This document shows, in pieces, positions 52,962 to 64,000 of a stretch of DNA of 64,000 nt. Source of the stretch: Escherichia coli (GTDB lineage: Bacteria > Pseudomonadota > Gammaproteobacteria > Enterobacterales > Enterobacteriaceae); assembly GCF_050920415.1 (NCBI RefSeq), contig NZ_CP169309.1; one strand, 5' to 3'. A program made the position numbers and the translations under genes. The notes beneath the pieces were generated by a model. It was not told the DNA's origin. It searched no databases and saw nothing but the letters and a program-made list of their open reading frames with translations. Position 1 is the first letter of the stretch, and each line of letters begins with the position of its first letter.

Positions 52962-53898
52962 TGCCAGTATCCTTTTTGCATCAGACGTAAACGGGCCAGC
53001 ATTGATACAATGCATATTTGATTTAATAGCTCCCGTTCGTGTTTTCTCTTATTAATGGCATCTTCAGTAAATACAGGGTTACTGATTCTGACACCAATTT
53101 CAAAACAACCTTCAGACGTATTAACGTTTGGTAATAACGTTTCCATTATCGCGTCCTCAACAATGAATTTTGTGATACGGTGCCTGGTGCCTCCAGGTGA
53201 CGTTAACCAGTTAACAATTAACGCCGGATACAGAGAACCCACCCATAAGAACCAATACGGAAGTCAACTGGCCTTTTTAACTGTTCCGCGTGCGCTTAGC
53301 CGCATTCACCGCATCACAAAATTCACTTTAAAAAGGGCGGCAGAGCAGTCACGGAGTAAAACTGATACCGCCAAACGTCACCAGAAAATTGATAACAGAG
53401 GGCGTTGCAGCGGGGTTGCCACTTAAGCGTATGGTCAACCTGACAACCCGGTGTCCTCAACGGGGAAGGAATAACCCCGCCATACTTACCGCCGCGCCAT
53501 TTCGCGGATTGCCACAACCGGAAGCGCACAGACGAAGATGTCAGTGGTACACAACAAAGGGAGGAATGACTTCGCCGTGCGCTTTCGCGTTATGCCCTGA
53601 CTTTTCAGGGATATATCCTTTCAGTAAACTGTTTGTGCCGGATTCTTATCCGTGTCCGGCGCACGACCACGCGCTGTCACGTGTGGTCTCCATTCTCAAC
53701 CAGTAACCTCAATGGAGGATAAAATTAAAATGGTCAGCAAACTAAATTAGACTCGCTGGAAGATTCATTATTAAACAGCGCGTTTAAATTATATTCTTGA
53801 ATGTTTTGGGGATAACCTTGCTGCTGAGGAAGGCTATCCAAACCATGTCGATGGTTTCGAAGCGATATATCTTTATCTATCCCGTAAACATGGATGGA

Positions 53899-56137: not shown

Positions 56138-56962
56138 ATGAGCAGCAAGCTTCATGGTCTTGTCTGGGAAGGGTGCGCCTTCACCGGCATGATCTTATCC
56201 AGGGTGGCAGTAATGGCTCGCCTTGCAGACTACAGCAATGACGAAGGTGTGTCATGGCCTGCAGTGGAGACCATTCGTCGTCAGATTGGGGCAAAGAGTG
56301 AATCAACGGTTAAAGCGGCGATAGCGGAACTGGAAAAGAACGGCTGGCTGACGAAGGAGGAGCGTAAGGTCGGTGGGCGTAATGAAAGCAATATCTACCG
56401 CCTTAATGTGGAAAAACTCGAAGCAGCAGCTGAGGCGGCGCGTGAGGCATATAAACCGAAAAGAAAAATTAGCCCGGCAAAAAATGACCCGTTAACAGTT
56501 GACCAGTCAAATATTGCCCCCTCAACGGTTGACCCGTCAAATTTTGATGGATCAACCGTTGGTAAAAAACAGCCGGTTAGGGGGGCGATGGTTGGCCCCG
56601 ATCCGTCAGTATTAAAACCTGATCCGTCAGATAAAAGATCTTTTCGTCCGGAAGCTTCGCAACCGGACCCGCAGACGGCTGAACAGGATTTTTTAACCCG
56701 ACATCCTGATGCGGTTGTGTTTAGTGCAAAAAAACGTCAGTGGGGAACTCAGGAGGATTTGGCATGCGCACAGTGGATCTGGGGGCGAATCGTGAGTCTT
56801 TACGAACAGGCCGCCAGCGATGATGGCGAGATCACCCGACCGAAAGAACCCAACTGGACAGCATGGGCCAATGACGTGCGCATAATGCGGATGCTGGATG
56901 GCAGAACTCACAGACAAATCTGTGAACCGCCCCGGGTTTCCTGGAGAGTGTTTTATCTGTGA
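56138..56962 (+). pseudogene. Phage replication-initiator (O-like, N-terminal winged-HTH) gene, 5' part; interrupted by an IS element after codon 261
   Basis: N-terminus ...AVMARLADYSNDEGVSWPAVETIRRQIGAKSESTVKAAIAELEKNGWL is typical of phage replisome-organiser proteins. The frame ends inside the IS inverted repeat; the original frame resumes at 58235 and stops at 58414. Confidence 0.65.
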
Positions 56963-56964
56963 AC

Positions 56965-57831
56965 TCAGGCTGCCAGATCATTGTTTCCGATGGAAGCATA
57001 ATAAGCTTTTTCTGCTTCTGCCGGAGGAGTATGGCCCAGCCTTCCCAGCAATCGTCGATTGTTATACCAGTCCACCCACGTGAGTGTGGCCAGTTCCACT
57101 TCTGCACGGTTTTTCCAGCTCTTACGGTGTATTACCTCCGCTTTGTAAAGACCATTGATGCTCTCAGCCATCGCGTTGTCATACGAGTCGCCTGTACTCC
57201 CTGTTGATGCCAGCAGTTTTGCTTCTTTTAGTCGCTCCGTATAGGCCAGTGACACATACTGAGAGCCTTTATCGCTGTGATGGATGGTGCCAGACGGACG
57301 ACGGGCCCACAACGCCTGCTCCAGCGCATCCAGCACGAATGTCGTTTCCATAGACGATGAGACCCGCCACCCCACGATGTATCCGGCAAACACATCAATG
57401 ATGAACGCCACATAGACGAAGCCCTGCCATGTGCTGACGTAAGTAAAATCAGCCACCCACAGCTGGTCAGGACGTTCTGCCACGAACTGACGGTTTACGC
57501 GGTCACCTGTGGCAACGGTTTTCCGGCTGACGGTAGTGCGGACCTTTTTACCCCGGAGAACACCGGCAAGTCCCATAACCGCCATGAGGCGCGCCACTGT
57601 ACATCTGGCCACCCTGATTCCTTCCCGTAACAACTGACGCCAGACTTTACGCACACCGTACACCTGATGATTTTCATCGTATACGCGCTGTATCTCTCTC
57701 TTCAGCCAGTCATCGCGCTGCGCACGGGCACTGCGTTTATCAGGATGATGCCGCTGCTGCTGACAATGGTAATACGTTGACGGGGCAATATGCAGTTCAC
57801 TGCATACCGGTCCGACCCCCGTACTGCTCAC
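56965..57831 (-). CDS. IS3-family transposase OrfB (DDE integrase core)
   Basis: DDE core ...LWVADFTYVSTWQGFVYVAFIIDVFAGYIVGW...HHSDKGSQY...DSYDNAMAESINGLYKAE. In this copy the body is in the same frame as orfA rather than the -1 frame. Confidence 0.85.
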   Translation of the reverse strand: MSSTGVGPVCSELHIAPSTYYHCQQQRHHPDKRSARAQRDDWLKREIQRVYDENHQVYGVRKVWRQLLREGIRVARCTVARLMAVMGLAGVLRGKKVRTTVSRKTVATGDRVNRQFVAERPDQLWVADFTYVSTWQGFVYVAFIIDVFAGYIVGWRVSSSMETTFVLDALEQALWARRPSGTIHHSDKGSQYVSLAYTERLKEAKLLASTGSTGDSYDNAMAESINGLYKAEVIHRKSWKNRAEVELATLTWVDWYNNRRLLGRLGHTPPAEAEKAYYASIGNNDLAA

Positions 57832-57852
57832 GCAGCTTATCCAGCAGTGGCA

Positions 57853-58179
57853 TTATTTTTTCCAGAGGCGGTCGAACTCCGCCTTCGCAAAATAAGCGGA
57901 AGCCTGGCGAAGGATATCGTTACTGCGGCGCAGTTCACGATTTTCACGTTCCAGCTCTTTCAGACGCTGACGTTCAGCGGTGGTGAGCCCACCATCACCG
58001 CTCCCGGTATCCCTCTCATGCTGGCGAACCCAGACACGCAGAGTCTCTGGCGTACAGCCAATCTTTGGAGCAATGGAACAAATTGCCGCCCATTGTGAGT
58101 CATATTCGCCCTGACTTTCCAGAACCATACGAACTGCGCGTTGACGGACTTCGGGGGAAAAACGAGTATTTTTAGTCAT
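57853..58179 (-). CDS. IS3-family transposase OrfA (HTH plus leucine zipper), 108 aa
   Basis: [57 protein letters not shown]...; ends WKK-stop at an A-rich run. Confidence 0.85.
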
Positions 58180-58234
58180 CCTGTTTACCTCTTTCTCAGG
58201 AAGTTTAGTCTCCAGGATTTCCGGGGCGGTTCAC

Positions 58235-58414
58235 TGCGAAATGTTTGGTCGGGTACAGCGGGATCCATTCTGGGTAAAAAACATCATGAGCCCGTCAAAA
58301 CTTCGCGATAAATGGGATGAGCTGGTTATCCGTCTGGGGCGTTCGCCTGTACAGCGTTGTGTGAATCATATTTCTGAACCTGACACCGAAATTCCACCAG
58401 GGTTCAGGGGGTAG
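58235..58414 (+). other. 3' remnant (59 codons) of the IS-interrupted phage replication gene
   Basis: Joining 56138..56922 to 58237.. (removing the IS and one CTG copy) restores a continuous frame ...RQICEMFGRVQRDPFWVKNIMSPSKLRDKWDELVIRLG... ending at TAG 58412-58414. Confidence 0.6.
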
Positions 58415-58454
58415 GTATTGATTTCAGATCATGAGGTAATTTTCAGGAGGACTT

Positions 58455-58877
58455 GTGGCAAAAGTTTTTACACAAGAAGAGCGGGAAAAAATTAAGGGAC
58501 AGGTTGTTGCACTCGTACGCCAGAGTGGGCGCGAGACGTTACGACAGCTGGAAGCTAAAACAGGTGCGACAAGATATCTGATTAGCGTTCTTGCCTGGGA
58601 GCTGGTTGCCAGTGGCGATGTATACAACTCTGGCTATGGGTTATTCCCGTCAGAACAGGCTCGTAAGGACTGGCAAAACGCCCGCAAAAAACTATCGAGG
58701 GCAAAGGGGAAGAAACCGTCTATGGTTGATCCGGACCTTATCTGGTCATTACCTGACGGAGAAATTCGTCGCTACGATAGTCGCCATAACATGGTTTGTC
58801 GCGAGTGTCTGGAAAGTGAAGTAATGCAGCGAGTGTTGGCATTTTATCAGGGAAATGTTCGCTATTTATTGAAGTGA
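58455..58877 (+). CDS. Hypothetical prophage protein (140 aa)
   Basis: GTG-start ORF after the replication gene; no recognisable family. Confidence 0.4.
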   Translation: MAKVFTQEEREKIKGQVVALVRQSGRETLRQLEAKTGATRYLISVLAWELVASGDVYNSGYGLFPSEQARKDWQNARKKLSRAKGKKPSMVDPDLIWSLPDGEIRRYDSRHNMVCRECLESEVMQRVLAFYQGNVRYLLK

Positions 58878-59341
58878 CGAGATTAAAGAGCATTAATACA
58901 TATGTGAATTGACATTTCTGTGGCACAGGGCTAGAACTATTCTCATTGTCAGCGTTGTGCCAGAGTCTGATGTTTGTTGTACATTTGGACGAATAGACGG
59001 CGTTGTTAACTTTAAAAATAACACAGGAACACTTTGAGAAAGTGAACAGGCGTATTTATTTTTTGCTGATGAAGGAGAGTAACTTTAATTTGGGTAATTA
59101 GATTGATAATAGGCCAGACGAAAATAACATTCTGGCACACTTTTGGTCGCTACAGTCATTAGTTAATTTTAAGTGATAAATTTTTATCCATAAGTTAACA
59201 CTAGTGTGTCATCTAGCGAAACCGAATCGCTTTAATCCATAACTTAAAGTTGAATCAGTGGGGTAGCAGTAGGTATGCCGGAACTGATAAACTGTGCAGA
59301 AGGCTAAACATTCATTCACTCGTGAGATAGTAGCATAAATT

Positions 59342-59686
59342 ATGCAAAGAATTATTCCTGATAAAAATTGGTGGGAAAAAGAGCGTATTAATCGTAAAGC
59401 ATCATCAAAATGCCCATATGCTAGTTCATACAGATGTCCTCGGTACTATCAGAGTGTAGTTTTGCTCTCAAGCATCAATATGATAGCTGGTATGGCAACT
59501 AGGAAAGAAAAAGAGTTGGGCGAATTTGGGGAAAGAACTAGTTTCTCATATTTATGTGATGAAGAAGTCCCAACAGTTACTACAAAAGAATATGGCGGCC
59601 TTGCATCAGTTAGTAATTTTTGCCCAGAAATATCATTTAGATATTTACACTATTACGCCGATTATATGTGTAAATATGTTGATTAG
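59342..59686 (+). CDS. Hypothetical Cys-rich small protein (114 aa) in the AT-rich cargo island
   Basis: ORF in AT-rich DNA, 70 bp upstream of the HEPN-like gene on the same strand; several Cys in CP/CD contexts; weak RBS. Confidence 0.35.
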   Translation: MQRIIPDKNWWEKERINRKASSKCPYASSYRCPRYYQSVVLLSSINMIAGMATRKEKELGEFGERTSFSYLCDEEVPTVTTKEYGGLASVSNFCPEISFRYLHYYADYMCKYVD

Positions 59687-59755
59687 ATAGATCAGGATAC
59701 TGGCAGGCGTAGTGCGGAAAAAGATAATTTAGAAAATGATTGGAAATATACATGG

Positions 59756-60208
59756 ATGTCAGTCAATCCTAAATTTTATTTAGATTGCGATGTTTTTGAA
59801 AGTGTCAAAAACTTCAATGAAGAATTGGCTAGTGATTACTTAAAGAGATTGCATCCAAATATCATTCAGCAAATAGATAGAATGAATAATTGCTTGGATA
59901 ATAATGACCCTGCGGGTGCACTGCACGCAGCCTCTAATATTCTAGAAACTATGGCGAAGGAAATCACTCAAAACCCGAATGTGGCAAATGAGTCATTGGG
60001 TGGTTTTTTTAAACAGTTCGAAAAAATGTCAAAATTACCTAAGAATCTTATTGATATTGTTAAAGATATTTATGATTTACGCAACAAACTACCTACTGCT
60101 GGACACGGAAGCTTGAACAGGCCTGAATTAACTATGGTAGAAGCTATAACTATTGCGGCAATGACAAAGGCGATTTTAGAAATTGAATATCGAAGCAAAG
60201 CCATCTAA
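59756..60208 (+). CDS. Abi_C / HEPN-like abortive-infection-type protein (150 aa)
   Basis: C-terminal motif DLRNKLPTAGHGSLNRPE fits the R-N-x(n)-H-G signature of Abi_C/HEPN domains; AT-rich codon usage. Confidence 0.4.
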   Translation: MSVNPKFYLDCDVFESVKNFNEELASDYLKRLHPNIIQQIDRMNNCLDNNDPAGALHAASNILETMAKEITQNPNVANESLGGFFKQFEKMSKLPKNLIDIVKDIYDLRNKLPTAGHGSLNRPELTMVEAITIAAMTKAILEIEYRSKAI

Positions 60209-60702
60209 CAAACATAAATTATGTGGTTCAAATTCCCGCTATACTTCTGTGTTATTGCCGCCAGCGTCTACTTATCGCTGTGAGTTCAACGGGGCGATGA
60301 TGCGTTAGAGATCTCTGAATCGATTGAAGTCTAAGGTTGTCAGGGCTGTAACAGTAGCCCTGTGTCATGAAAGGATTGCATATTAATTAACGAAGAACAG
60401 ACCAATAGCATTGATAGTTGTTTTCAAAAATAGACCAATAACAAACACGACTGGCCATCTCATCGATTTTCGACAGTATGCAGAAATGGGCGGGATCCAC
60501 ACGCAGTACCAGCTTGCTAAGATAAACGAAAAGGAGACTTTAACCAGTCAGTGGCTGCATGCTGATGGTGATCCGCTATGGGCCGTAGATGTTGTTTGAT
60601 GTACGCAGAAAGAGACGACGAAGGGCACTATGCCGAAAACTAAATCGGTTTTAGAGATTAACCGCGCTGGTGAGCTGGAGTGATTGACTTTTAGAACGCC
60701 AG

Positions 60703-60732
60703 AAAGCAAAAACCTCACAATCGAGTGAGGTT
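60703..60732 (-). terminator. Candidate terminator after the kinase-partner operon (AACCTCAC-loop-GTGAGGTT)
   Basis: Perfect 8-bp stem; U-rich flank on the minus strand; lies 15 bp downstream of the 208-aa gene stop. Confidence 0.45.
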
Positions 60733-60746
60733 TTGTTAAGGGCTTA

Positions 60747-61373
60747 CTATTTTTTGGCAATTAGTGCATGCATCGCCATTTCATGACCTTTTCTGCGAAG
60801 TTTTTTCACACGGGGCTTGAGCCTAGTGAAAGAACTTGGGCTAATTGTCGACTCAGCTTCAACTATATCATTGCGGGGAGCACCCGTTTTAGCATCTTCA
60901 TAGCGGATAAGTATTTTAAACGTGCCCTCATCAACTCCGACACCTTGCAAGTGATGAAGTTTAGATGAAACAGCACCGATTAAATAATCATGAATTCCTT
61001 GCAGGCCCGTTTTACCGATTGGTGAATAGGTATGCAACATATTTGCACCTACAGGAAGGAACTGGCGAAAGTCAGGAACATGCATCTTGTTAACTTCAAC
61101 AGAAGTGTATGCTTTCATGTCAAAAGAAACTCCAGGTTTCCGTGCATTGACTTCTAGCCATTGAGGCAAATCGAGAATATATTTGCTCTCAGCAGTTACT
61201 TCCAGTTTCTTCCTAGACGATAATGTCACGTCCATTACCTGAGCCATATCAGCCATAGAAAGCTCAGCGGCCTTCCGGTTGATGGCTTGTACCCGCTCGC
61301 TCACGTTAGGTCCGAATGCATCGAACAACGAAATTTCAGCAGCTGGTTTAATGGCTTCAGTTTTAACAGACAT
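60747..61373 (-). CDS. Hypothetical protein (208 aa), translationally coupled partner of the P-loop kinase
   Basis: AAGGAG Shine-Dalgarno 5-6 nt upstream of ATG 61371-61373, directly after the kinase stop; no family recognised (track ORF starts at GTG 61379). Confidence 0.5.
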   Translation of the reverse strand: MSVKTEAIKPAAEISLFDAFGPNVSERVQAINRKAAELSMADMAQVMDVTLSSRKKLEVTAESKYILDLPQWLEVNARKPGVSFDMKAYTSVEVNKMHVPDFRQFLPVGANMLHTYSPIGKTGLQGIHDYLIGAVSSKLHHLQGVGVDEGTFKILIRYEDAKTGAPRNDIVEAESTISPSSFTRLKPRVKKLRRKGHEMAMHALIAKK

Positions 61374-61398
61374 ATACACTCCTTAGATAGGACACTTA

Positions 61399-62097
61399 TT
61401 ATACACCTAAATGCGCTAGATCGCTAACGTCTGAATATGGGCAGCTATGGGAGGTAGTCCAGTTTTCAAGGGTCACGTTAGGAGTATAGTCGACCACGAA
61501 CTGACCATCATTTTCAGGATCTTCCCGTCGATGATAAACATTGAGTGTAAATAGGCCTGCATATTTCGCGAGCATATGTTCAATGGTCTCTCTGCTCTTG
61601 AAAAAGTTCGCTTTAAGAACCTCTAACGGAACCTTACGAGAGCGGGCTTGGGCAAAAACCCACGCGTAAGCCGGATCAAAATAGACGTAATTCAGTGCTA
61701 CCTGATAACCAGCCTTCAGGGCCAGATCAAAGTTTCTCTCCGCAATACCTATACTGGAGAAAGTAGAGTCCATAACAATGGGATAGCCTTCAGATAGCGC
61801 TTTTTTGTAGATAAAATCGACCATTCTGGAGGCAGGTCTCTGATAGTCCACAGAGTTCTCTTCATTGTAGTAGGGGAACCACCAGCGAAAATCATCAGCA
61901 TCAATTCGAACAATGTTTGTGATGCCATGTTGTTCTAAAAGACGATTTAAGAGCTCGGTTTTACCTGCAGCAGGCGAACCAGCCATAAACAGGACGTGCT
62001 TGGCATTGGCATTTTTGTTTGCTGTTACGTAACTATAAACGTAAGGGCGAATTGCCTCACCAAACTCAGGCAGTATGGTTTCAAGTTCTTTTTTCAT
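61399..62097 (-). CDS. P-loop kinase of the zeta-toxin / polynucleotide-kinase superfamily (232 aa)
   Basis: Walker A MAGSPAAGKTEL followed by IVRIDADDFR (compare zeta toxin GGQPGSGKTS...VIVIDNDTFK and T4 Pnk GCPGSGKST...NRDDYR), then IVMDSTFSS and ALKAGYQVALNYVYFDP. Confidence 0.55.
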   Translation of the reverse strand: MKKELETILPEFGEAIRPYVYSYVTANKNANAKHVLFMAGSPAAGKTELLNRLLEQHGITNIVRIDADDFRWWFPYYNEENSVDYQRPASRMVDFIYKKALSEGYPIVMDSTFSSIGIAERNFDLALKAGYQVALNYVYFDPAYAWVFAQARSRKVPLEVLKANFFKSRETIEHMLAKYAGLFTLNVYHRREDPENDGQFVVDYTPNVTLENWTTSHSCPYSDVSDLAHLGV

Positions 62098-62261
62098 CGG
62101 TAAATCATGCCGTGGTAGTTTTAGTTTTATTTAACAATATCATAAACGTTTAAAGATGGTTACAAATTAGCTAGATTTGTGAGCGCTTTAACCTCTAAAA
62201 CCCTCTGGAACCCAATACCGCTTTTCTGGCTGTCTTTTCAATACGGCATCCAGCGCATCAC

Positions 62262-62600
62262 TTACTCGGTCTGTATGCGGTTCATTGCTGAAGTCGCCAG
62301 TTGCGGGTAAATCTGCATCTCTGCGCCGTTTAAGATTCGCGTATTTACGCGCAAGCGCTCGATGGCTTCATTTTGCTGGTGGCTTTCCTTCCTCGCGGCT
62401 ATTCTAGCTATCTGATTGGCTGCTATGGCCTTTGCCGCTGTCATGGAATGCGCCAGAGTCTTATCCGTCATCATTACACGCTGCGTTTCCAGCATGCTGG
62501 AATGATCTCTTTTTGTTGTTCTTGAAGAAGAACTCTTATTCTTCGGTATATCATTTTGACAGGGGGCAGTGTAAGTATCCCTGCAAAACGAACCATTCAC
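62262..62600 (-). CDS. Hypothetical small protein (77-112 aa), upstream of the kinase operon
   Basis: ORF with possible internal start MLETQRVMMTDKTLAHSMTAAKAIAANQIARIAARKE...; helical and basic; 164 bp upstream of the kinase gene. Confidence 0.3.
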   Translation of the reverse strand: MNGSFCRDTYTAPCQNDIPKNKSSSSRTTKRDHSSMLETQRVMMTDKTLAHSMTAAKAIAANQIARIAARKESHQQNEAIERLRVNTRILNGAEMQIYPQLATSAMNRIQTE

Positions 62601-62821
62601 TTTAACAGATATGTCAATTTCCGCTCATCGTTCAAAGCGGACTAGAAGGTTAGCTTGCGTCGGACTTGGCGTTTTTAAAGAAGTGCTGGTGGTGACTGGT
62701 TGTTGTGTTCCATTTCTACAGAACAAAATCACAGAAACTATTCCCAATAGTTTTATTGAATCAATGATGAGACAGCCTCATATTTATCAGGACTGGTGTA
62801 CGTCCAATACAGGAGGTTGTC

Positions 62822-62911
62822 GTGCTGGTTCTCAAATGTGCGCTCGCTATTGCGGCTGTAATGGCAATTTATTGTCTTGCTGTTGTTCTTATGGATCGCC
62901 TTTCTGATTGA
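62822..62911 (+). CDS. 29-aa hydrophobic peptide (MLVLKCALAIAAVMAIYCLAVVLMDRLSD) with perfect Shine-Dalgarno; candidate small membrane/type-I-toxin-like peptide
   Basis: AGGAGG at 62811-62816, 5-nt spacer, GTG start at 62822; single predicted TM helix with polar tail; 210 bp upstream of hok. Confidence 0.4.
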   Translation: MLVLKCALAIAAVMAIYCLAVVLMDRLSD

Positions 62912-63122
62912 TTTTATATTGGCGAGGTGACGGGAGTTAAGTAGGATTGCTGCGGGTGCTTGAGGCTATCTGTCTCAGGCATGAATACCAACGGCAGATA
63001 GAGAAAAGCCCCAGTTAACATTACGCGTCCTGCAAGACGCCTAACATTAATCTGAGGCCATATCTATGACTTGCACACGTAGGTTAGCCTCTTACGTGCC
63101 GAAAGGCAAGGAGAAGCAGGCT

Positions 63123-63353
63123 ATGAAGCAGCATAAGGCGATGTTAATCGCCCTGATTGTCATCTGTTTAACTGTCATTGTGACGGCACTGGTAACGAGG
63201 AAAGATCTCTGTGAGGTACGAATCCGAACCAGCCAAACGGAGGTCGCTGTCTTCACAGCTTACGAACCTGAGGAGTTAGAGACCAGGCGAGGGAGAAATC
63301 CCTCGCCACCTCTGATGAGTCAGGCATCCTCAATGCACCCACACTTAACTTGA
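63123..63353 (+). CDS. Hok/Gef-family type I toxin homologue with a 25-codon C-terminal extension (76 codons to the first stop)
   Basis: MKQHKAMLIALIVICLTVIVTALVTRKDLCEVRIRTSQTEVAVFTAYEPEE aligns with Hok (...[24 protein letters not shown]...). After ...EPEE the next codon is TTA (Leu) and the frame runs to 63353. Confidence 0.75.
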   Translation: MKQHKAMLIALIVICLTVIVTALVTRKDLCEVRIRTSQTEVAVFTAYEPEELETRRGRNPSPPLMSQASSMHPHLT

Positions 63354-63737
63354 TTCGGCGGGTTTATTTTATCTGTAAATATTTTTATAAAAATAATGCC
63401 CACACACAGCATAAAACAAAAAGTATCACAGATAAAAAAGGAGCGTAATGTGCAGATTTGTTGTTTTCCATATTTACTCGCTTTAACATAATCAATATTG
63501 ATATGGTTGTTATTTCGGTGGTTTCAAACGAGATATTATGGTGATCTGGCAAATTTGCATAACATTAAAATTTAATTTATCTAATCGCTTTTAATAATAA
63601 GCGTTGTGTTTTATCCCAGCAATCTGTTGTTTGATTTTTATTTCATTAATGTAGGGGCTTTACACTGGAACCAGTTTATTTATACTTTATACGCCAGCCT
63701 GAACAACTGGCACCTGCTGCGCCAGCAGAGACAACCG

Positions 63738-64000
63738 ATGGCGCACGATACCAAATTACACAATTCTGATGATTCTGCCGTCTTTGCCAGCAGGTGCGGA
63801 CGGCGTTTTCACGCATTCAAATCGGACTGGTTCCAGCATTCTCCATGCACTGAAGAACAGGCTGAATGGTTAATTCATTGCTACCGCAGACGCGGATACG
63901 AGATTAAGAAAGCCCTCAGCCCCGATTATCGTCACTGGATAATCTACGTCAGGCTTCCTTATTCCGAACGCCCACCGCGTCAGTCCCGCACATTCCAGCA
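63738..64000 (+). CDS. Partial ORF (at least 87 codons, runs off the window end), hypothetical
   Basis: ATG at 63738 opens MAHDTKLHNSDDSAVFASRCGRRFHAFKSDWFQHSPCTEEQAEWLIHCYRRRGYEIKK... with no stop before the window end; not in the ORF track. Confidence 0.3.
   Translation, partial: MAHDTKLHNSDDSAVFASRCGRRFHAFKSDWFQHSPCTEEQAEWLIHCYRRRGYEIKKALSPDYRHWIIYVRLPYSERPPRQSRTFQ

Follow-up and report, generated by a model that had tools for sequence, protein, structure and literature searches.

The locus considered here raises the question of what becomes of a Hok toxin gene whose reading frame runs on past the position at which its stop codon is expected, and of whether such a gene still encodes a working toxin. 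The frame lies on the plus strand at 63123–63353 of the window, by which is meant the whole 64,000-nt stretch of Escherichia coli DNA that was analysed (contig NZ_CP169309.1); it opens with an ATG at 63123 and extends for 76 codons to its first in-frame stop, a TGA at 63351–63353. The preferred reading, held at a probability of roughly three in four, is that this is a derived allele, most likely without function, of an otherwise complete type I toxin-antitoxin locus (hok/mok/sok) that is of the HokD/RelF type.

Identity of the toxin and its prophage setting

The first 51 codons of the frame (63123–63275, +) encode MKQHKAMLIALIVICLTVIVTALVTRKDLCEVRIRTSQTEVAVFTAYEPEE, which was assigned as the native coding part of a Hok toxin of the HokD/RelF type by Pfam, by tblastn and by alignment to K-12 DNA. 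The Pfam family HOK_GEF (PF01848) matches residues 6–47 over its whole model (1–42 of 42, E=2.5e-21), PHROG 251 ('MokW-like host killing') is matched with E=1.3e-30, and the product has the make-up of a small single-span HOK_GEF membrane toxin. Residues 1–51 are 96% identical in tblastn to a HokD query sequence, the homology being confirmed by DNA alignment to the K-12 hokD locus. In NCBIfam, a library without a HokD-specific model, the 51-aa and 76-aa forms match just two models, both below cut-off, scoring 44–46 bits against NF007279 (cut-off 73) and 34–36 against the HokA model (cut-off 89). Judged by its sequence, the 51-residue part is beyond doubt a Hok toxin, and the original prediction, which had called it Hok/RelF-like, is upheld by the Pfam, PHROG and K-12 comparisons. 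Searching the window by tblastn with five Hok sequences, and by Rfam over all 64 kb, returned no second hok copy.

Gene order places the hok locus in a Qin-type lambdoid prophage beside rspB, the site of the cryptic Qin prophage of K-12. The Qin/Kim-like nature of the element and its integration beside rspB are marked by the gene for the small RNA DicF (53335–53386, −; Rfam RF00039, 76.7 bits), which adjoins dicB. The prophage runs from integrase, excisionase and exonuclease through dicB, DicF, repressor, cro, ydaT, a replication gene and a DUF977 gene to a variable cargo slot, followed by hok, a rem-like gene, ydfU (DUF968), rusA, Q, lysis and morphogenesis genes. In this arrangement hok holds its usual position, between the replication/cargo region and rem/ydfU/rusA/Q, and the succession of dicB, DicF and repressor, then hok, rem/ydfU and Q, is syntenic with Qin. 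The hokD (relF) gene of K-12 Qin is found in the same place, upstream of rem/ydfU/Q in a lambdoid prophage at the Qin site by rspB, with dicB and DicF, and its toxin is identical to that of the window at 49 of 51 residues (the differences being Q4H and G36S); by both identity and prophage position the window gene is an orthologue of HokD/RelF. Loci of the hokW/mokW/sokW type in lambdoid phages (PHROG 251) encode the same protein family, and the copies in mEp460_ev081 and HannyBb stand upstream of rem, as in the window; unlike the window gene, however, the hokW-type copies of lambdoid phages end at a TAA after codon 51.

Several other features of the prophage deserve description in their own right. 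The cargo slot, which reaches from the DUF977 gene to hok, carries in the window a zeta-toxin family ORF with a weak PezT-like match (61399–62097, −; 232 aa) and, upstream of it, a 112-codon ORF (62262–62600, −) inside which PGAP calls only a 234-nt gene; in strain 503025 the slot holds an AbiH-family abortive-infection gene, and by its content it looks like a defence/moron hotspot. At 56922–58234 (−) lies a 1.3-kb IS3-family element with 26-nt inverted repeats, two transposase ORFs and an ALIL frameshift pseudoknot at 57781–57898. It interrupts a helix-turn-helix gene of the prophage replication region, an interruption that forms a context of decay; the insertion is absent from the three genomes MFDS1022581, ARS-C301 and MB07081, to which the text returns below.

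A 300-nt block upstream of the hok promoter (62630–62930) recurs in four phages and in 1,582 of 5,426 E. coli genomes, where it bears no annotation. Within it lies a hydrophobic ORF of 29 codons (62822–62911, +) with a GTG start, a strong Shine-Dalgarno sequence (AGGAGG, 62811–62816) and the peptide MLVLKCALAIAAVMAIYCLAVVLMDRLSD. When surveyed by tblastn against phages and with a degenerate DNA pattern, this ORF was open in 118 of 119 IMG/VR viral contigs, with 14 conservative peptide variants, and its variable sites were distributed 6:5:10 by codon position, a modest third-position excess; it is frameshifted in two of nine hand-aligned loci, and on 21 contigs it occurs without hok within 800 nt. 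The 29-aa peptide has no match in PHROG or NCBIfam. The ORF at 62822–62911 looks like a candidate for an unannotated small membrane-protein gene, the product of which may be a small membrane protein or may represent a second toxin-like gene.

Loss of the stop codon

Codon 52 (63276–63278, +), which is the stop codon TAA in alignments elsewhere, reads TTA (Leu) in the window, and what would otherwise be 3' UTR is read through for 24 codons, ETRRGRNPSPPLMSQASSMHPHLT, before the new TGA is reached (63279–63353, +). The prediction that the stop had become TTA, a single substitution away from TAA, and that the frame continues to 63353 is borne out by both the frame and the alignments; a reversion of T63277 to A restores TAA exactly at codon 52. 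Alignment to hokD and other hok loci, which had been proposed as a check, finds TAA in every other locus aligned, namely in strain 357900, the nearest relative (96.7% identical over 521 nt), as well as in strain 503025, K-12 hokD and six more E. coli or phage loci. As the closest relative and the eight other aligned loci carry TAA, it was a single derived A-to-T transversion at 63277 by which the hok stop TAA became TTA. Loci of the same type on IMG/VR viral contigs have TAA at codon 52 in 90 of 93 cases, a frameshift in one and TTA in two, and these two represent the same allele as the window.

ORFs of the hok family comprise about 49–55 codons and end just before a GC stem-loop in the 3' region, and the toxin ORF of the relatives ends at codon 51 with TAA, whereas here the frame is 76 codons long. 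It had been allowed that homologues of this gene might normally measure about 76 aa; this was considered and rejected, as their product usually measures 51 aa (70 aa if the mok start is taken), and as the longer matches encountered (P0001–P0010 and P0100) are separate stop-loss or frameshift alleles found on one or two contigs each. Stop-loss alleles of independent origin, in which codon 52 is CAA or GAA, are sporadic and confined to one or two contigs each; among them P0001, P0002 and P0004, which are without the terminator substitutions described below, reach 114–115 aa from the mok start. Such scattered CAA and GAA alleles present the pattern that would be expected of recurrent decay.

Occurrence and spread of the allele

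Of 5,426 complete E. coli genomes, 4,932 have a match to a 521-nt query centred on this region, almost always under a feature annotated as hokD or Hok/Gef family, while the identical 521-nt allele is found in three of the 5,426: ARS-C301 (cattle, Texas), MB07081 (seawater, Galapagos) and MFDS1022581 (food, Korea). In all three, PGAP records a pseudogene, described as 'Hok/Gef family protein, incomplete, missing C-terminus', and it labels the identical locus as hokD, pseudogene. A 60-nt probe centred on codon 52 is matched exactly in three genome records and with a one-position difference in about 4,140. By exact protein look-up the 95-aa product that is read from the mok start was located on 53 contigs and the 76-aa product on seven (about 60 in all), and GenBank copies of the product include EGB64097.1 from E. 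coli M863. A difference of one base from thousands of homologues might be taken for a sequencing or assembly error in a gene that really ends at TAA. This explanation was rejected and has a negligible probability, as the same allele recurs in three independent complete genomes, from the USA, the Galapagos and Korea, on two IMG/VR contigs and on the 53 and 7 contigs of the protein look-up; the correction to TAA that the original prediction had kept in view is not what the independent assemblies contain. The TTA allele is, by all these comparisons, real, rare and derived, and represents an abnormal state of the gene.

The surroundings of the allele indicate how it has spread. Across flank and prophage the window is 99.98% identical to MFDS1022581, except for its extra IS3-family element. 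Against ARS-C301, in a comparison of 15960–56926 with 58234–64000, the chromosomal flank is only about 97% identical, while the right arm of the prophage, including hok, is 99.86% identical. From this difference between flank and arm, the TTA allele is seen in the alignments to travel with the prophage across chromosomal backgrounds, which implies horizontal spread or recombination of a prophage segment that carries the stop-less allele.

Leader, mok and Sok

The putative hok promoter (62919–62947, +), placed by motif position, consists of a −35 element TTGGCG (62919–62924), a 17-nt spacer and a −10 element TAGGAT (62942–62947), and ends 7 nt upstream of the leader start as given by the start of the Rfam model. 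A simple consensus scan for promoters and terminators flagged neither the hok nor the Sok promoter, and both were placed by homology of layout and by conservation; since the scan passed it over, the hok promoter appears to be weak by consensus. The hok gene of R1 is also weakly transcribed. The 5' leader of the hok mRNA (62954–63128, +), with tac, the Sok-target hairpin and the ribosome-binding regions of mok and hok, matches Rfam RF01794 over the full model (1–157) with E=8e-25 and a score of 108.1 bits, the gathering threshold being 59, so that the conserved structure of hok mRNA leaders is present in full length.

The mok-type leader ORF (63066–63353, +) begins with an ATG at 63066, which precedes hok by 19 codons (57 nt) and is in frame with it. 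Because the lost stop is common to the in-frame mok and hok, both run through the 3' UTR to the TGA at 63351, and mok encodes 95 aa here as compared to 70 aa normally. The intact 70-aa relatives (P0022 and others) start with M..(R/C)RL..KEKQAMKQQK, and it is on account of the mok start being in frame with hok that many databases list 70-aa 'Hok family toxins'.

A putative gene for the antisense RNA Sok was placed on the opposite strand (63000–63109, −) by its motifs, by the fold of the minus strand and by a conserved promoter block. Its promoter has a −35 element TTGCCT (63109 to 63104), a 17-nt spacer and a −10 element TAACCT (63086 to 63081), and the predicted transcript, from about 63074 to about 63000, would have a single-stranded 5' end opposite the mok start, then a long hairpin (63051–63014) and a U-run. 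The minus-strand fold has an energy of −34.8 kcal/mol (z = −5.9), the hairpin being followed by GGGGCUUUUCUCU. The mok ATG thus lies opposite the predicted 5' end of Sok, as befits an overlapping mok with a Sok-targeted start, and the block that combines the Sok promoter and the hok Shine-Dalgarno sequence (63081–63122) is invariant across nine loci. The sequence features of a cis-encoded antisense Sok, comprising promoter, hairpin and U-tract, are accordingly present. Sok and the leader seem undamaged, and their expression may continue; both mok and sok were found where they had been anticipated, in 62.95–63.15 kb.

Between these invariant flanks, the segment that contains the Sok 5' end and the mok start (63059–63080) is hypervariable: 14 of its 22 columns vary among the nine loci and 11 alleles occur among the 93 viral loci, the variant of the window being seen only together with the TTA allele. 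This hypervariability suggests a diversified recognition of the Sok target, and hence of antisense specificity, between hok copies.

The 3' end of the transcript

The full-length hok mRNA is inert, being closed by pairing of tac with fbi, and slow processing of its 3' end gives rise to a truncated and refolded mRNA with two possible fates, translation (of mok before hok) or binding by Sok followed by RNase III cleavage; in R1, the processed mRNA ends at a GC stem-loop just past the stop codon (PMC9841398). In the window a GC stem-loop, GGCGAGGGA-GAAA-UCCCUCGCC, is located directly 3' of the native stop (63286–63307, +), with a folding energy of −20.2 kcal/mol and z = −5.0. It is kept in 78 of 93 viral loci when the two commonest variants are counted, and by analogy would correspond to the stem in which the processed (Tr) hok mRNA ends in R1. 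Farther downstream lies the fold-back inhibitory element fbi, CCUCAAUGCACCC (63328–63340, +). In the minimum free energy fold of 62954–63372, which has a total of −160.6 kcal/mol (z = −7.8), it is paired with nt 1–12, the tac element (62954–62965), and when the RNA is truncated at 63312, after the GC stem, its 5' end is predicted to refold as a local hairpin. Both the end pairing and the refolding on 3' truncation that mark a hok mRNA are thus predicted for the window, and folding of the leader and a search for fbi and tac, the further checks that had been proposed, come out in favour of a hok-type RNA, with tac-fbi pairing in the fold and a leader that matches RF01794.

The intrinsic terminator (63347–63370, +) is degenerate. 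In its 5' arm ACTTGA has replaced ACCCGC, whereas the GCGGGT of the 3' arm and the T-run persist. The terminator of the common allele, AACCCGC-UUCG-GCGGGUU followed by a U-run, folds at −11.8 kcal/mol; with the 5' arm AACUUGA of the window the hairpin is left at −3.8 kcal/mol, no better than shuffled sequence, and an intrinsic terminator that would define the full-length 3' end is not recovered. Alignment shows that the same substitutions, ACC CGC to ACT TGA, made the new TGA at which the extended frame closes. The 3' UTR of K-12 hokD has the same GC hairpin, fbi and terminator as the window locus, and the two copies have decayed in different parts: K-12 hokD keeps TAA and the terminator but has lost the promoter, tac, mok and Sok to relBE, its homology to the window starting at the hok Shine-Dalgarno sequence, whereas the window copy keeps the leader and Sok and has lost the stop codon and the terminator hairpin. 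With regard to the defining features of the hok family, two are therefore missing from the window locus, the ORF length of about 50 codons and the intrinsic terminator, and the remaining sequence features are present.

The terminator hairpin measures −11 to −15 kcal/mol in about 80 of the 93 viral loci and is weak or truncated in about 13; given these 13, the terminator end of the hok locus seems to decay fairly often. The variant with the terminator lesion occurs in five of the 5,426 genomes, three with TTA and two with TAA, and since two TAA-bearing relatives also carry the lesion, parsimony would place it before the loss of the stop. It may be, then, that the terminator was hit first, leaving the locus silenced, or deregulated and counter-selected, and that the loss of the stop was a neutral secondary or a compensatory event, a consequence rather than the primary cause. 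This order of events, which overlaps with the main reading of a non-functional allele, is regarded as possible but less likely than not. The arm substitutions shared by five genomes of which only three have TTA, the fall in hairpin energy and the weak terminators of related loci all speak for it. However, the two lesion-bearing relatives with TAA keep an intact 51-codon hok, called hokD by PGAP, so that the lesion alone is not obviously disabling, and fbi is situated upstream of the terminator, where by the predicted fold it can still pair with tac. The A-to-U change at the lost stop also adds a U-G pair to a lower stem of the full-length RNA (−34.9 as compared to −30.7 kcal/mol locally), and may make a contribution at the RNA level.

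Probable consequences for toxin function

The closest parallel to the window allele is provided by R1 hok, in which selection for loss of toxicity yielded six substitutions that remove the stop codon, each with a 17-aa extension, and in which an 8-aa C-terminal FLAG tag abolishes toxicity, the authors hence expecting the stop-loss proteins to be non-toxic (FASTBAC-Seq; Le Rhun et al., NAR 2022/23, PMC9841398). As in the window, a single substitution carries the frame through the terminal GC stem. The R1 mutants are laboratory-made, have an extension of 17 aa and have mok in a different frame, whereas the window allele is natural, has an extension of 25 aa, has mok in frame and extended, and has a damaged terminator. 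By this analogy, the earlier suggestion that the extended Hok could be inactivated agrees with the published suppressors of toxicity (PMC9841398).

The position of the new stop would offer a reason for such inactivation. The sole in-frame stop after codon 51, at 63351, lies 44 nt 3' of the GC hairpin. If processing follows that of R1, the 3' end of the mature hok mRNA would fall near 63309, some 40 nt short of the new TGA, and with its end upstream of the TGA the processed mRNA would have no stop codon in the open frame. Ribosomes would unfold the hairpin that protects the 3' end and come to a halt at that end after about 11 extra codons, to be rescued by trans-translation (tmRNA/SsrA) or by ArfA; the product would be a tagged and unstable Hok with about 11 extra residues, and the mRNA would be destabilised. 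The 76-aa protein could be formed only from the full-length RNA, which would be translationally closed, and any that was made would have a basic tail with three Arg, where the native protein has the acidic end ...EPEE, on the side bound for the periplasm. Either route, non-stop rescue or the basic tail, would remove or blunt killing. By analogy with R1, translation of the mature mRNA probably does not cover the whole 25-codon extension, and the 76-aa protein would probably never be made, although with the terminator damaged the transcripts may depart from the R1 model. When an R1-type locus was checked, loss of the stop gave exactly 17 extra residues, the next in-frame stop being 22 nt 3' of the GC stem; as that stop lies 3' of the terminal stem, the non-stop situation holds for the selected R1 suppressors too. 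Nothing relevant on hok in connection with tmRNA or trans-translation turned up in a search of the literature.

An active toxin is the contrary possibility. The extended protein, perhaps attenuated or altered, would then have its tail exported to the periplasm and tolerated, and the locus would go on serving in killing, addiction or defence. Full-length HokC, a close paralogue, is toxic on over-expression even with PhoA fused to its C-terminus; a HokC-GFP fusion, however, is non-toxic (PMC8509063). Additions at the C-terminus thus do not inactivate every toxin of this clade. In the sequence, the promoter, tac, mok, Sok, fbi and the 3' hairpin are all intact, and largely complete prophages harbour the allele in strains from three continents; it is also present on about 60 contigs, yet it is rare. 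At native expression, moreover, the R1 stop-loss mutants survive selection for loss of toxicity and the FLAG tag inactivates (PMC9841398). The translatable mRNA is predicted to end short of the new stop, and the new tail is basic where the native tail is acidic. On balance a toxin that is still active is considered unlikely, and the derived, non-functional allele is retained as the preferred reading. The persistence of the TTA allele, evident from near-identical prophages in backgrounds that are only 97% identical and from the roughly 60 public contigs, is compatible with neutrality and also with retained function.

Implications for the hok family

The hok gene of the window is, in sum, most likely an ordinary decayed toxin allele, with a lesion of a kind already known and as a pseudogene already in RefSeq. 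Pedersen and Gerdes are said to have found in 1999 that hokA, hokB, hokC, hokE and hokD of K-12 are inactivated by IS elements, point mutations or rearrangements. These loci resemble the window in that chromosomal and prophage hok genes commonly decay while parts of the RNA machinery stay; to our knowledge, stop loss together with terminator decay is not among the K-12 hok lesions.

A far more speculative outcome, to which very little probability is attached, is that the stop-less hok is conditional, being either a toxin gated by trans-translation or a basic-tailed, attenuated 76-aa Hok of a persistence type. If the toxin were gated in this way, tmRNA tagging would hold Hok down, and its output would rise only once the rescue of ribosomes became saturated or blocked, as might happen under phage attack or translation stress.

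For the derived, non-functional allele that is preferred here, the finding matters mainly for correct annotation, the module being a textbook hok/mok/sok locus. The window allele is nonetheless a natural counterpart of the laboratory stop-loss suppressors. With its new stop placed past the stem in which the processed mRNA would end, it suggests that the R1 suppressors may act by non-stop rescue, a cause of suppression not considered in PMC9841398, and not by extension of the peptide.
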